Shown here: positions 16,022 through 20,278 of the stretch, one piece after another | How positions within the stretch are numbered: the first letter of the stretch is position 1 | How the letters are laid out: the number at the start of each line of letters is the position of its first letter | DNA from: Xylanibacter ruminicola 23 | GTDB taxonomy: Bacteria; Bacteroidota; Bacteroidia; Bacteroidales; Bacteroidaceae | NCBI RefSeq assembly: GCF_000025925.1 | Contig: NC_014033.1 | Location: forward strand, 480,001-512,000 | Direction of reading: 5' to 3' | DNA: 32,000 nt | Notes under the pieces: generated by a model | Told to the model about the DNA's origin: nothing | The model's input: the letters and a program-made list of their open reading frames with translations, nothing else | The model's database searches: none | Translations under genes and position numbers: made by a program

Positions 16022-17164
16022 ATGCCTACAACTCAATATTTACTACTGTTTGCAGTCAACCTGGCGTTTATCCTCACCAACCTGTACGGATGGATTCTTA
16101 AGTGGTACTATCGCCCCAAAGCCTACAATGCGCATTTCCACGAGCTGTTTCCTGCCCAGCGGTCGGTAGGAGTGCTGTACCTGATGCAGATTATGGAGCT
16201 GCCCTACCTGTTGCAGGTGGGCGACGATGATGCACTGCTCTACGTGAATGCCTTTGCCGTGCTGTTTTTTTCGCTGCAGATGCTGGTGATGTGTCACGGC
16301 TATTTCTTTGCGGCACGAAATGCGGCCCGTGCCAGCGTGCTGGATCACAAATGGTACTGGCTGTTTATGCCGGCAGCCCTTGTGCTGGCCCCCCTGTTGC
16401 TACAGGCCCTGGGCATGGTGAAGCTGCCCGATGGTTATCGTCCTTTGGCGTTTGTGGCAGTCAGCGTGGTGTTTGCTGCCTATTTCGCCCTGTCGGTGCA
16501 CATGGCACTCAAGATAGGACAGGCCGTGCGCCGTGCCAACGAGGACACCTATGCCGATAGCGATGATTTCCCCGTGCGTTTTGCCCAGTACGTCCAGTGG
16601 TTGCCCACATTTATCTGTGTGCTGATGGCTATCAACTTCTATGCTGATAATGCTATCGTGAAAGCCGTGCGCGACGTGTTTTTTACGGGTATGAACATCT
16701 GGTTCTGCATCTTTACGCTTAACCCTTGGCGACAGCCCTATGCCGACCGTACCGATGAAATCGTTAAGGCTGCAGCCGATGATATGGCTGAACCAGCACC
16801 TGTGGCAGGCACGTTCCGTTTAACCGACGAGCGCTTTATGCAGTTGAGCCGTAAGTTGGACGACCTGCTCACCAAGGAGCGTATCTTTACCGAGCAGCAC
16901 ATCACCAGCGACTTGCTGACGGCACGTCTGGGCACCAATGCCACCTATCTCTCCGAGGTGATACGCCGCAGCGGTTACCAGTCGTTCTACGATATGATTT
17001 GCCAGCATCGTGTGCGCCATGCCATCAGTTTGATTACTGCCAAGCCCGATGAGCGCCTGCTGGTGATAGCCGAAGAGTGTGGTTTCTCGTCGCCAGCATC
17101 GATGACCAAGGCCTTCAAGCAGTTAGGCAAGCAGTCGCCTTCGGCCTATCGCCAACAAGGGTAG
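16022..17164 (+). CDS. Membrane-anchored AraC/XylS-family transcriptional regulator
   Basis: The N-terminal ~230 aa hold about 6 predicted TM helices. The C-terminal ~100 aa form an AraC-type dual HTH (LGTNATYLSEVIRRSGYQSFYDMICQHRVRHA ... IAEECGFSSPASMTKAFKQLGKQSPSAYR). Confidence 0.8.
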   Translation: MPTTQYLLLFAVNLAFILTNLYGWILKWYYRPKAYNAHFHELFPAQRSVGVLYLMQIMELPYLLQVGDDDALLYVNAFAVLFFSLQMLVMCHGYFFAARNAARASVLDHKWYWLFMPAALVLAPLLLQALGMVKLPDGYRPLAFVAVSVVFAAYFALSVHMALKIGQAVRRANEDTYADSDDFPVRFAQYVQWLPTFICVLMAINFYADNAIVKAVRDVFFTGMNIWFCIFTLNPWRQPYADRTDEIVKAAADDMAEPAPVAGTFRLTDERFMQLSRKLDDLLTKERIFTEQHITSDLLTARLGTNATYLSEVIRRSGYQSFYDMICQHRVRHAISLITAKPDERLLVIAEECGFSSPASMTKAFKQLGKQSPSAYRQQG

Positions 17165-17167
17165 GGG

Positions 17168-17230
17168 GCTTTCCTTTCGGCGTATTTCTTTCCTTTTAGC
17201 GTATTTCTGCTTTCCTCTCAGCATATTTTT
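17168..17230 (+). repeat. Three tandem ~20-22-nt direct repeats (consensus gCTTTCCTyTyrGCrTATTTyT)
   Basis: gctttcctttcggcgtatttct / ttccttttagcgtatttct / gctttcctctcagcatattttt. They end 35 nt upstream of the -7 box at 17265. The third unit can also pair with tgaggggaaa at 17233-17242. Confidence 0.8.
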
Positions 17231-17264
17231 GATGAGGGGAAAGGTGGTTTGCTGCCTGCGGGTG

Positions 17265-17272
17265 TATATTTG
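17265..17272 (+). promoter_or_regulatory. Bacteroidetes -7 promoter box TATATTTG for the micro-ORF/sulfatase/maturase unit
   Basis: Matches TAnnTTTG, 27 nt upstream of the ATG at 17299. Confidence 0.5.
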
Positions 17273-17298: not shown

Positions 17299-17430
17299 AT
17301 GAGGGAATTAGAGATTCTGCTTTACGTACTTTTCGGTGTTACCGCCGTTATCGTATTTTACCTTTTATATAAGGTAAACAGTTTTTTCAATCCTAAAGAT
17401 CGCCATGATTTAACCTCTAAAAAACGATAG
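17299..17430 (+). CDS. 43-aa single-TM micro-protein ORF (hypothetical)
   Basis: MRELEILLYVLFGVTAVIVFYLLYKVNSFFNPKDRHDLTSKKR has one 19-aa hydrophobic helix and a basic tail. Its stop (17428-17430) lies 3 nt before the sulfatase ATG. It is below the ORF-track size cutoff. There is no homology evidence. Confidence 0.4.
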   Translation: MRELEILLYVLFGVTAVIVFYLLYKVNSFFNPKDRHDLTSKKR

Positions 17431-17433
17431 ATA

Positions 17434-19089
17434 ATGAACAAGCAAAACATTCAGAAAACGCTGGTGCTGCTACCTACAAGTGCACTGCTGGCTGGTTGTT
17501 TGGATGCGACCGACAACCCTGCAAACAAAATCACGCCTACGCCTAATGCCGACGGCAAGTACAACATCATCTTTATCACTACCGACCAGGAAGCCTACAT
17601 GGAGCAGTATCCTGCTGGTAGCGACTATGCCGCTCGCGAACGCCTGCGCCAGATGGGTACCACATTCGAGAAGCACTACGCCTGTGCCAATGTTTCCACA
17701 TCAAGCCGCTCGGTTATCTACACCGGCCGCCACATCACCGAAACCTGTATGCTGGATAACACCAACTATGCCTTTGTAAACGATATGTCGCGCGACCTGC
17801 CTACCGTAGGCGATATGTTGCGCGATGCCGGCTACTATACCGCCTTTAAGGGTAAGTGGCACATTTCTGAAGATACCGAGTCGCTTGAGGAGTACGGCTT
17901 TAGCGACTGGACCGAAGGTGATATGTACGGTTCGGTTTGGGAGGGCTATAAAGAGGATGGCACCATTGCCGACCATGCCATCGACTGGCTGAAAAACAAA
18001 GGTAAGCAGCTGAACAACGACGGCCAGAGTTTCTTCCTGGCTGTAAACTTCCTGAACCCGCACGATATCATGTACTTTAACGAAACACCGGGCACGTACA
18101 TCGCAGGCGAGGCTACACCTGCACCCGACGATCCTGTTTATAAAAAGAACTACAATGTGCCTGTTCCTGCATCGTGGAACGAGTCGTTCGACAAACCTGG
18201 TCGCCCTGCTGCACATAAGGAGTACAACAAGCAGTGGCAGGATTGGGTAGGTCCATCGCCAACCGACAGCACAGGGTGGCACACCTTCCGCGACTATTAT
18301 TTTAACACTATCCAGGATGAAGACAACCACATGCTGGTGCTGCTCAAGTATCTCGAAAAAGCCGGACTGCTTAATAATTCCATCGTTATCTACACCAGCG
18401 ATCATGGTGAGATGCAAGGCGAACACGGCTTGAAGGGTAAGGGTGGTAATATCTACGAGAACAACATCCATGTGCCCCTGATTATCTATCACCCCGAGAT
18501 GAAGGGCGGTCGCCATTGTTACAACCTTACCTCGCATCTCGACCTGGCACCCACATTTGTTGATATTGCTACAGCTGGCAACGTGCAGCAGTTTAGTGCT
18601 ATCACTCAGGAGCTCCACGGACACTCGCTTATGCCTGCTGTGAAGAATCCCGCTATCGACATCCGTAACAGCGAGGGTGCCCTGTTCTGTTTCGAGATGA
18701 TATCCATGATTGATGGCGACTACGTGATGAATCCCAGCCTGAAGCCTGCCTATCGTGCCGATATGAACAAGCGCGGTTTTGTACGTGGCATCATCACCCC
18801 CGATTATAAGTTTGCCCGTTACTTTGCACCAGTTAAGTTCAACACACCAGCCGATTACGAAGCCTTGTGGGCCGACAACGATGTAGAGCTGCTGATGTGC
18901 GGTACCGACGAGACCGAGAACCTGGCATGGCCTAAGGATAATAACGCCAACCAGCAACTGGTAGAGCTGATGAACCAGAAACTGAACGCCCTGATACAGC
19001 GCGAGATTGGTACCGACGATGGTAGCGAAACCAAGAAAGGCTATAAGGGCGGTGTAGAAATGTACGATAAGAATAGGTATGACCAGTAG
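17434..19089 (+). CDS. Sulfatase (S1 family, formylglycine-dependent fold) lipoprotein with a Ser-type non-canonical maturation motif
   Basis: Lipobox LLAGC. Metal-site IIFITTDQ, GKWH, YTSDHGEMQGEHG and HVPLIIYHP motifs. The maturation motif reads S88-T-S-S-R-S-V-I-Y-T-G-R (nt 17695-17730) instead of C/S-x-P/A-x-R. Confidence 0.85.
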   Translation: MNKQNIQKTLVLLPTSALLAGCLDATDNPANKITPTPNADGKYNIIFITTDQEAYMEQYPAGSDYAARERLRQMGTTFEKHYACANVSTSSRSVIYTGRHITETCMLDNTNYAFVNDMSRDLPTVGDMLRDAGYYTAFKGKWHISEDTESLEEYGFSDWTEGDMYGSVWEGYKEDGTIADHAIDWLKNKGKQLNNDGQSFFLAVNFLNPHDIMYFNETPGTYIAGEATPAPDDPVYKKNYNVPVPASWNESFDKPGRPAAHKEYNKQWQDWVGPSPTDSTGWHTFRDYYFNTIQDEDNHMLVLLKYLEKAGLLNNSIVIYTSDHGEMQGEHGLKGKGGNIYENNIHVPLIIYHPEMKGGRHCYNLTSHLDLAPTFVDIATAGNVQQFSAITQELHGHSLMPAVKNPAIDIRNSEGALFCFEMISMIDGDYVMNPSLKPAYRADMNKRGFVRGIITPDYKFARYFAPVKFNTPADYEALWADNDVELLMCGTDETENLAWPKDNNANQQLVELMNQKLNALIQREIGTDDGSETKKGYKGGVEMYDKNRYDQ

Positions 19090-20278
19090 TGACGACTTGC
19101 GACACTATGCCATCGAGGTAAAGCCCATTGGTGCGGCTTGCAACCTGCGATGCCAGTACTGTTATTATTTAGCGAAGGGTGGTGGCCATGCCGCAGGCCC
19201 TTCGCTCATGACGGATGAGGTGCTCGAGAACTACATCCGTCAGGTGATTGATATCCACGGACGTTATGCCGAGATAGAGTTTGCCTGGCATGGTGGCGAG
19301 CCCACTATGTGCGGCATTCCCTTTTTTGAGCGGGCCATGGCGCTGCAACAGAAATACGGCGAGGGCCGCCAAATACTTAACACGCTGCAAACCAACGGTA
19401 CGCTGCTTACCGACGAGTGGTGCCAGTTCTTCCGCAATCATCAGTTCCGTATCGGCATCAGCATCGATGGTCCCGAACATCTGCACAACATCTATCGCAA
19501 GGACGCACGGGGCGATGGTACCTTCAGTCGCACCATGCACGGTCTCGACCTGCTGCTGAAACACGGTGTCGACTTCAATACCCTTACCACCGTAAATGCC
19601 GCCAACGCCACACATGCTGCCGAGGTGTATCAGTTTTTACGAGGATTCAGCAACTACATGCAGTTTTTGCCAGTTGTCGAGAGCCTGCCGCTTAATGATA
19701 GCCATAAGAATGTGGCTTTGCCCCCAGGCATCTATAGACATCAGCCTCGCAACCTGGCCCCCTTCTCTGTGCAGCCCGAAGCCTACGGCAAGTTCCTATG
19801 TACCATTTTCGATGAGTGGAGCCGCCGTGATGTAGGTCGCAAGTATGTGCAGGTTATCGAGGCTGCCATTGGCAACCTTACCCACCGCCCAGCCGGTTTG
19901 TGTGTTCACGAATCCGTTTGCGGCCATTGTGGTGTGATTGAGAAGAATGGCGACCTGTACCGTTGCGACCGCTATGTGTTTCCCGAGTATCGCATTGGCA
20001 ATATCCTGCAGGGTTCGCTCCACGATATGATGCAAACCAACCGCAAGTTTGGCGAGTATAAGCTCGACAGCCTGCCCTCCGCCTGTCTGCATTGCGATGT
20101 AGCCCATCTCTGTTTCGGTGGCTGCCCCAAGGATCGCCTGGTAGAGCGCATCACCCTTAACGGTCCCGAACGCCGCAACTACCTATGCCCCGGCTACAAA
20201 ATGTTTTTCCGCTACATCTCGCAGAAAATCAAAACACTTTTTTTGCCCATTCATAAATCAATGTTTAAACGAGTTTAA
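19079..20278 (+). CDS. Anaerobic sulfatase-maturating enzyme (radical SAM / SPASM)
   Basis: CNLRCQYCYY radical-SAM cluster motif near the N-terminus and a C-terminal Cys-rich SPASM region (CGHCG..C..C; CLHCDVAHLCFGGC). 11-nt overlap with the sulfatase 3' end. Confidence 0.88.
   Translation: MTSSDDLRHYAIEVKPIGAACNLRCQYCYYLAKGGGHAAGPSLMTDEVLENYIRQVIDIHGRYAEIEFAWHGGEPTMCGIPFFERAMALQQKYGEGRQILNTLQTNGTLLTDEWCQFFRNHQFRIGISIDGPEHLHNIYRKDARGDGTFSRTMHGLDLLLKHGVDFNTLTTVNAANATHAAEVYQFLRGFSNYMQFLPVVESLPLNDSHKNVALPPGIYRHQPRNLAPFSVQPEAYGKFLCTIFDEWSRRDVGRKYVQVIEAAIGNLTHRPAGLCVHESVCGHCGVIEKNGDLYRCDRYVFPEYRIGNILQGSLHDMMQTNRKFGEYKLDSLPSACLHCDVAHLCFGGCPKDRLVERITLNGPERRNYLCPGYKMFFRYISQKIKTLFLPIHKSMFKRV

Follow-up and report, generated by a model that had tools for sequence, protein, structure and literature searches.

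A sulfatase family with an S-T-S-S-R formylglycine box and its linked clade of anaerobic maturases, as found at a Xylanibacter ruminicola locus

The sulfatase and maturase genes

The stretch of DNA analysed here (the window) spans 32 kb, positions 480001-512000 of the complete 3,619,559-bp genome of Xylanibacter ruminicola 23, and carries on its + strand the gene of a formylglycine (FGly) sulfatase overlapped by the gene of an anaerobic sulfatase-maturating enzyme (anSME). The first gene (17434..19089) encodes the 551-amino acid (aa) precursor of an S1-type FGly sulfatase lipoprotein, assigned by PF00884 and by its catalytic and metal-binding blocks, and the second (19079..20278) encodes a radical S-adenosylmethionine (SAM)/SPASM protein of 399 aa recognised by TIGR03942, which belongs to a clade of anSMEs referred to below as linked. 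The closest named relatives come from other Xylanibacter (Prevotella) ruminicola strains, with a sulfatase identity of 99%.

The sulfatase scored 139.2 bits with PF00884 (gathering cut-off, 25), and the fold motifs TTDQ, GKWH, SDHGE and HVPL named in an earlier reading of this DNA (the original prediction) were all recovered. The metal-binding and catalytic blocks of S1 sulfatases were matched as NIIFITTDQ, GYYTAFKGKWH and NSIVIYTSDHG, and residues D51, Q52, K139, H143, H210, D323, H324 and K336 are invariant in the sulfatase alignment A1. A phmmer search of the PDB returned BT4656 (5g2v) and BT3177 (7p24) as the best sequence matches (E 1e-25 to 1e-24). Foldseek analysis of an AlphaFold2 model (predicted local distance difference test 87, predicted template modelling score 0.89; residues 1-31 disordered) gave only S1 sulfatases and FGly hydrolases as top matches, with template modelling (TM) scores of about 0.6 (at most about 0.64) and identities of at most 22%. 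The sulfatase family is therefore without a structural representative among the solved structures.

The maturase scored 429.3 bits with TIGR03942 against an equivalog cut-off of 349.45, in agreement with the anSME assignment originally made from its radical-SAM and SPASM cysteines. The radical-SAM cluster motif C21-x3-C25-x2-C28 was read from the translation at 19139..19162 (+ strand), and at least 93% of 204 anSMEs retain each of C21, C25, C28, C275, C281, C296, C336, C339, C345, C349 and C370. Full-length alignment with the Clostridium perfringens enzyme anSMEcpe (4k37; E 1e-60, about 44% positional match) places Tyr30 and Asp297 of the maturase on Tyr24 and Asp277, and roles have been described for a Tyr and an Asp beside the target residue and for the +4 Arg of the substrate as an anchor (PMC13638132).

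The formylglycine box and its variation

The FGly box S88-T-S90-S-R92-S-V-I-Y-T-G-R occupies 17695..17730 of the + strand (tcc aca tca agc cgc tcg gtt atc tac acc ggc cgc), and the stretch around it reads HYACANVSTSSRSVIYTGR. In the phmmer alignment, 'vSTSSRsviyTGr' of the sulfatase lies over 'lSGPSRacilTGk' of the N-acetylglucosamine (GlcNAc)-6-sulfatase BT4656 (5g2v), which makes S88 the FGly position, R92 the +4 Arg and Ser90 the occupant of the Pro position at +2. Both the S-T-S-S-R reading of the box, with Ser in place of Pro or Ala, and the choice of S88 as the residue to be modified had been part of the original prediction and were borne out by translation and alignment, respectively; a box register elsewhere in the protein was ruled out by the same alignment. 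S88, R92 and T97-G98 (+9/+10), aligned to SGPSR...TG of 5g2v, are invariant in A1. Among the SulfAtlas 2016 patterns, the Ca-binding-2 and PS00149-type patterns match the sulfatase, and the catalytic pattern fails at two positions only, -2 (Asn) and +2 (Ser). Near the box, H81, Y82, C84 (-4) and H100, which follows the T-G, are also family-invariant (A1, residues 81-100).

Pro or Ala at +2 is a consensus, non-catalytic feature of about 96% of S1 sulfatases (Pro 87%, Ala 9%, each other residue <1%; n=4058; PMC5066984), and it is missing from the present protein, in which the residue is Ser90. Since residues other than Pro and Ala each account for <1% of S1, the sulfatase was filed as a motif variant within S1 and not as a canonical member. 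Among the top 120 homologs in a collection of 5.8 billion proteins, the box reads STSSR in 109, STPSR in eight, STASR in one and STSAR in one. A species-level scan, with one genome per prokaryotic species, yielded 525 stretches encoding relatives of the sulfatase, of which the best 80 are the loci analysed below (handles beginning with L denote single loci); all of their readable boxes are STSSR, one STSAR excepted. Because STSSR is conserved family-wide, the box is not a product of chance, and Ser at +2, rare across S1, is fixed in the STSSR family and constitutes its signature.

Whether S-x-S-x-R is a common and already characterised variant had been posed as a check on the original prediction, and the outcome is divided: the variant is common within the family, and a word search of the literature found neither a paper naming an S-x-S-x-R or STSSR box nor a characterised family member. 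A literature search on Prevotella ruminicola and rumen sulfatases turned up nothing on the gene of the window, and the Synergistota paper that it returned dealt with glycine-reductase-like genes and not with the STSSR family. Pattern-based annotation that insists on Pro or Ala at +2 will overlook this family or misjudge it.

Linkage to a distinct maturase clade

The anSME starts 11 nucleotides (nt) inside the 3' end of the sulfatase gene, as first noted in the original prediction. Its ATG at 19079 and the sulfatase TAG at 19087-19089 define an overlap at 19079..19089 (+ strand), at which the maturase may be translationally coupled to the sulfatase. A TTG at 19097 is conceivable as an alternative maturase start; it is disfavoured because 13 loci share the 11-nt ATG overlap, some of them with a sulfatase identity of no more than about 60%. 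In 35 related loci, start and stop overlap by 1, 4, 8, 11 or 14 nt. No intrinsic terminator-like site was detected between sulfatase and anSME on the + strand of the window.

In 74 of the 80 loci, the sulfatase is followed on the same strand by an anSME homolog, and the remaining six stop at a contig edge; for one of these six (L065), a linked-type anSME with 55% identity was located in the same genome, close to the end of a different contig. The downstream anSME directly adjoins the sulfatase, except in eight Prevotella loci with one or two lipoprotein genes inserted. Across phyla, no other gene is conserved around the pair in the 80 loci, and the sulfatase is the only cross-phylum partner of the anSME. 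By phylum, the loci belong to Bacteroidota (38), Bacillota (17), Synergistota (13), Thermotogota (4), Chloroflexota (2) and one further phylum, and their carriers are all anaerobes, from rumen, gut, digesters and groundwater. Pairwise identities of the sulfatases and of the anSMEs are correlated with r = 0.94 (Mantel test, 0 of 999 permutations). The metagenome-assembled genome (MAG) RUG765 holds two complete cassettes (L021 and L027), each with its own anSME, and MAG bin.85 holds two sulfatase copies (L034 and L050), one of them cut at a contig end.

The linked anSMEs of other phyla are 48-56% identical to that of the window. When the latter was used as query in a search of 1.84 billion cluster representatives, one representative was retrieved at 469 bits (56% identity), and the next reached 361 bits with identities of at most 46%. 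In trees built from the linked anSMEs, library representatives and second-copy anSMEs, all linked anSMEs fall into a single clade, which excludes the anSMEs termed general (IQ-TREE, SH-like approximate likelihood ratio test 100, stem 0.34; FastTree, support 91, stem 0.28), and it includes just four unlabelled library representatives. Eleven residues mark this clade, being present in at least 92% of linked anSMEs and rare outside: A64, E67, R97, L197, P215/G217 (in an insert), H283, F301, M318, N321 and F346.

A TIGR03942 profile search of the X. ruminicola genome gave a single gene above the cut-off, the anSME of the window. PF00884 matched at four places, including the sulfatase of the window, and a relaxed six-frame scan of the genome for FGly boxes found no further match within any sulfatase domain. 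The three other PF00884 proteins were ruled out as FGly enzymes, having 603-626 aa, hydrophobic N-terminal halves and no FGly box; they are encoded at genomic positions 3582679-3585290 and 3080189-3081088, two of them as neighbours, and are probably envelope enzymes resembling lipoteichoic acid synthases or phosphoethanolamine transferases. The window thus holds the sole FGly sulfatase and the sole anSME of the genome, and the maturase therefore has exactly one plausible client. This uniqueness, together with the retention of the pair in related loci, upholds the dedicated enzyme-maturase pair that had been proposed for this DNA.

Some irregular cassettes were also seen. In some rumen Prevotella (L015-L022), the insert between sulfatase and anSME (3544-6722 in L015) encodes a 303-aa protein without a Pfam match and a 729-aa Peripla_BP_6/ANF_receptor-Peptidase_C13 (legumain-like) protein, and in L032 (11640-13571) a 643-aa lipoprotein without a Pfam match is inserted at that place. 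In a few Synergistaceae and Acetobacterium records (L076, L081 and L011), a frameshift or an assembly error divides the linked anSME into two pieces or two open reading frames (ORFs); these may be decaying copies or sequencing errors.

Canonical-box relatives and the specificity of maturation

Six distinct STPSR loci were found to have no adjacent anSME, namely Bacteroides helcogenes L007 (with the near-identical L008), L093, L094, L095, L096 and L113. In the STASR relative L114, the neighbouring anSME is of the general type, 44% identical to that of the window, and falls into a clade (support 99) together with L097 and L098, which are second anSME copies carried by two Bacteroidaceae MAGs. 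A linked-type anSME is missing from 7 of the 7 distinct loci examined with Pro or Ala at +2 (P/A variants). P0071 (L112), an STSSR sister of the STPSR protein P0063, retains a linked-type anSME (56% identity). The same two Bacteroidaceae MAGs carry a linked anSME together with a general one, and encode canonical Ser-type sulfatases with STPSR, SAPSR and SGPSR boxes. Such enzymes disagree with the earlier premise that most Bacteroides sulfatases are Cys-type, which is also contradicted by the Ser at the FGly position of wild-type B. thetaiotaomicron sulfatases (bioRxiv 10.1101/2021.07.23.453482); Bacteroidetes enzymes of the Ser type are described as making up about 80% of the sulfatases of gut microbes (PMC12789469). 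The distribution of boxes and maturases is as expected from a division of labour in which P/A boxes fall to general anSMEs and the S box to the linked clade, and it suggests a matched enzyme-activator pair.

We propose that the two genes form a self-contained, co-inherited sulfatase-maturase module, a model to which, taken as a whole, we give about an even chance. The operator of an upstream regulator and a promoter (see below) would drive a single transcript comprising a micro-ORF, the sulfatase and the anSME, and coupling at the 3' end of the sulfatase ORF would allow the anSME to be translated. The maturase would act in the cytoplasm, abstracting a C-beta hydrogen from Ser88 of the unfolded pre-lipoprotein and oxidising this residue to FGly, with the S-T-S-S-R box gripped via its backbone and via the +4 Arg as an anchor. 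Sec export and lipidation at Cys22 would follow maturation, and the mature sulfatase would hydrolyse a sulfate ester outside the cytoplasm, in the periplasm or at the surface. The monophyletic anSME lineage of the family would be matched to the variant box, and in lineages losing the linked anSME the +2 residue would have reverted to Pro or Ala because general anSMEs would handle the S box poorly. FGly formation at S88 is highly probable and sulfate-ester hydrolysis by the sulfatase is likely, and we regard matched, altered motif recognition between the linked anSME and the STSSR box as evenly balanced.

Several observations weigh against matched recognition. On the sulfatase tree, the Bacteroidales half has the P/A variants as a basal grade of poor resolution, and the association of motif and maturase amounts to one independent contrast on supported branches and three on the best tree, so that it cannot reach significance. 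In seven of the eight STPSR variants, the change from Ser to Pro at +2 is accompanied by one from Val to Ala at +6 (STSSRSV vs STPSRSA), which suggests a structural role in the mature enzyme and not in recognition, as would be expected for packing on one helix face. The monophyly of the linked anSMEs and the correlation of identities are also expected from plain co-transfer of neighbouring genes. In structural work as summarised in PMC7771511, contacts between anSME and peptide are mostly to the backbone and the enzyme is promiscuous; general anSMEs may thus accept S-x-S-x-R.

Such points would fit a linkage without altered specificity, in which an ordinary promiscuous anSME moves horizontally with its sulfatase into anaerobes devoid of another sulfatase or maturase, and Ser at +2 is kept for structure or catalysis. 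This explanation, which we hold to be possible if somewhat doubtful, would also suit the patchy distribution of the family, of which no carrier was found among 200 other sampled genomes of the same GTDB family, the partial intermixing of phyla in the sulfatase tree, and the gene content of the carriers, since three of the five genomes checked have only one to three PF00884 matches and one anSME, and X. ruminicola has a single FGly sulfatase and a single anSME. Base composition gives no sign of recent transfer (GC 0.49-0.54 in the module, flanks alike). Against such mere linkage stand the two genomes that keep a linked and a general anSME side by side, the P/A loci without a linked-type anSME, among which the sole neighbouring maturase is general-type, and the cross-phylum conservation of Ser at +2, in contrast to the Pro retained by Ser-type sulfatases that belong to other families but occur in the same genomes.

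The original prediction is thus upheld in part. The relaxed or altered recognition that it raised is favoured by comparative evidence, namely the separate anSME clade, its absence from P/A variants and its coexistence with general anSMEs, and the small number of contrasts speaks against it. A bolder reading, to which we give somewhat less than an even chance, is a co-evolved, partly orthogonal maturase-substrate pair, in which general anSMEs would be inefficient on S-x-S-x-R and the linked anSME would prefer it, within an uncharacterised S1 subfamily of anaerobes that would act on a non-glycan sulfate ester.

The signal peptide of the sulfatase (17434..17499, + strand) ends in a lipobox L-A-G-C22, found by regular expression at residues 19-22. 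Lipoboxes are also present in most Bacteroidales homologs and in many of those from Firmicutes, and a C-x-D-x-x-D-N-P sequence at the lipobox Cys is kept in Prevotellaceae homologs. The hint of surface export that had been seen in C-L-D-A-T-D is weak: the sequence is acidic, with two separated Asp at +2 and +5 only, and neither it nor C-x-D-x-x-D-N-P corresponds to the published Bacteroidota surface-export signal, K-(D/E)2 or Q-A-(D/E)2 (PMC5080379).

Comparison with known systems

Several Ser-type sulfatases with neighbouring maturases offer points of comparison, as do the single maturases that serve many sulfatases. The motif C/S-x-P/A-x-R is the textbook determinant of FGly formation, and anaerobic maturases are regarded as promiscuous, serving all sulfatases of the cell. 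The STSSR family with its own maturase lineage challenges this picture, and it offers a direct route to asking what anSMEs read in their substrates. If the co-evolved pair is real, it would be the first natural case of motif-level specificity among anaerobic sulfatase maturases and could provide a second, orthogonal pair for Ser-to-aldehyde tagging in anaerobic hosts.

In Prevotella strain RS2, the gene of the mucin-desulfating sulfatase MdsA reportedly has an adjacent, divergently transcribed maturase gene, as Wright and colleagues are said to have described in 2000. MdsA, BT4656 (5g2v) and BT3177 (7p24) share with the present system a Bacteroidales Ser-type sulfatase and a neighbouring Fe-S maturase. 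The S1_11 GlcNAc-6-sulfatases BT4656 and BT3177 differ from it in sequence (about 20-22% identity in structural comparison), in their S-G-P-S-R box and in the context of a mucin or glycosaminoglycan polysaccharide utilisation locus (PUL), which is absent here. The box of AtsA from Klebsiella pneumoniae is canonical, with Ala at +2 (S-A-P-A-R type). In the Klebsiella atsBA system, the genes of the exported Ser-type sulfatase AtsA and of AtsB, the radical-SAM maturase dedicated to it, are neighbours (Szameit et al. 1999, cited by PMC10838667), and maturation necessarily takes place in the cytoplasm before export, as it would here. Unlike atsBA, the window has a sulfatase of another subfamily, the gene order sulfatase to maturase with overlapping codons, and a maturase from a separate clade. 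The pairing of a Ser-type sulfatase with a neighbouring radical-SAM maturase of its own is thus already known; new are an S-x-S-x-R box fixed throughout a family, the tie of this box to a distinct anSME clade over six named phyla, and the loss or replacement of the maturase where the box is canonical.

The maturase resembles the B. thetaiotaomicron anSME BT0238 (ChuR) and anSMEcpe (4k36-4k39) in its TIGR03942 membership, the cysteines of three clusters and the catalytic Tyr and Asp. Those two enzymes are single promiscuous maturases serving many sulfatases, as described in PMC7771511, whereas the clade of the window anSME was found only beside STSSR sulfatases in our sample. With SulfAtlas S1 (PMC5066984), the sulfatase shares the fold, the Ca-binding-2 and PS00149-type patterns, the Ser nucleophile and the +4 Arg, and departs from it in the catalytic pattern and in the low TM scores to solved structures.

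Substrate class

No substrate can be inferred from sequence or structure matches, because the PDB and Foldseek rankings are flat over S1_11, S1_12 (choline), S1_7, S1_16, S1_NC and phosphonate monoester hydrolases (PMHs), with TM scores of 0.55-0.64. No SusC/SusD or other PUL genes are present in the 32-kb window, as had been noticed at the outset for the flanks of the pair, and PUL-type neighbours (SusC/SusD, glycoside hydrolases or a hybrid two-component regulator) do not recur around the 80 related loci; the sulfatase was accordingly not classed as a PUL sulfatase. Lineage-specific neighbours (an alkylsulfatase, lipases and lipoproteins) may lean, if weakly, toward alkyl or lipophilic esters over polysaccharides, and a small or lipophilic sulfate ester is, with low confidence, the more likely substrate. 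Sulfated small molecules, lipids, steroids or alkyl esters are raised here as candidates in the form of a question. The locus flags a predicted exported sulfatase, the only one of X. ruminicola, from a family of rumen, gut and digester anaerobes that is uncharacterised.

An alternative is that the protein is an FGly enzyme hydrolysing another ester, for example a phosphonate monoester or a phosphodiester, like the PMHs of the superfamily. Foldseek scored PMHs (4uph, 4upk and 9gve) about equal to sulfatases, at TM about 0.6, and no NCBIfam equivalog cut-off was reached, the best model being choline-sulfatase TIGR03417 with 105.5 bits against 433.45. We nevertheless consider this activity improbable: carbohydrate and choline sulfatases head the matches both by sequence and by structure, one lineage with an SdsA-type alkylsulfatase gene between sulfatase and anSME provides a sulfate-ester context, and known PMHs are Cys-type.

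The neighbours in individual lineages are as follows. L010 (6456-12881), an ENA metagenome scaffold from outside Bacteroidales, encodes a DUF1254/DUF1214 protein, the STSSR sulfatase, an SdsA-type alkylsulfatase with Lactamase_B, Alkyl_sulf_dimr and Alkyl_sulf_C domains, and the anSME; in its sister genome (L009), ParE, IS605 OrfB and HNH genes take the place of the downstream part. A 408-aa LIP-type (PF03583) alpha/beta-hydrolase adjoins the sulfatase in two separate basal Bacteroidales loci, L094 (7720-8946; STPSR) and L112 (2775-4001; STSSR). In L096, a GDSL lipase is encoded two genes downstream of the sulfatase.

Upstream region and flanking genes

Upstream of the sulfatase, an AraC-family regulator of 380 aa (16022..17164, + strand) combines a long N-terminal region with a C-terminal HTH_18 domain (PF12833, residues 299-379) and is putatively a membrane protein. 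In 21 Prevotellaceae loci a homolog immediately precedes the sulfatase, and homologs occur also in the STPSR-type loci L007, L093, L094, L095 and L113. In L026, a different AraC-family gene is found upstream in divergent orientation, clustering with ORFs of L023, L032 and L046.

Three direct repeats CTTTCCTNTCNGCGTATTT followed by an inverted GAGGGGAAAG lie between the regulator gene and the promoter box, at 17168..17229 on the + strand, or 17168-17240 when delimited more widely (TRF: period 19-22, 3 copies). The same architecture, with variant sequences, precedes the sulfatase in L013, L014, L028, L030, L024, L031 and L034, and a remnant is present in L007. The repeats and the inverted element are a candidate operator of the AraC-type regulator, and the retention of the architecture with co-varying sequence in diverged loci is as expected for such an operator. 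Further downstream, TATATTTG (17265..17272, + strand) was read in the sequence as a promoter box of the Bacteroidota -7 type, a class outside the scope of the sigma-70 scan; most of the related loci checked have a TAnnTTTG box at the corresponding position.

A 43-aa micro-ORF (17299..17430, + strand), predicted to form one hydrophobic helix with a basic tail, ends in a stop 3 nt before the sulfatase ATG. Small ORFs (36-61 aa) of the same make-up and position, diverged in sequence, were found in L013-L022, L023, L024, L026, L028, L030, L031, L034, L037, L046 and L050. The conserved Prevotellaceae neighbours of the pair are the putative membrane AraC-type regulator, the direct-repeat putative operator and the small membrane ORF.

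A small ORF ahead of the sulfatase in Prevotellaceae might be taken for the precursor of a peptide, with Ser88 being left unmodified and the radical-SAM enzyme targeting such a micro-ORF product or something else. The anSME fold is indeed common to maturases of ribosomally synthesised and post-translationally modified peptides, and models of these score on the maturase (DynA 213 bits, DarW 155 bits). All of them remain far under their own cut-offs, however, whereas the maturase passes that of the anSME equivalog; the micro-ORF was not seen at that position in non-Bacteroidales loci that keep the sulfatase-anSME pair, and the sulfatase is the only partner that accompanies the anSME across phyla. 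A target other than the sulfatase is, on these grounds, very improbable.

In the window, the pair is flanked by thiamine and arabinose genes and by those of an esterase, a patatin, an EamA transporter, the AraC regulator, Hsp20, a DUF4114 lipoprotein and a GH3 protein.

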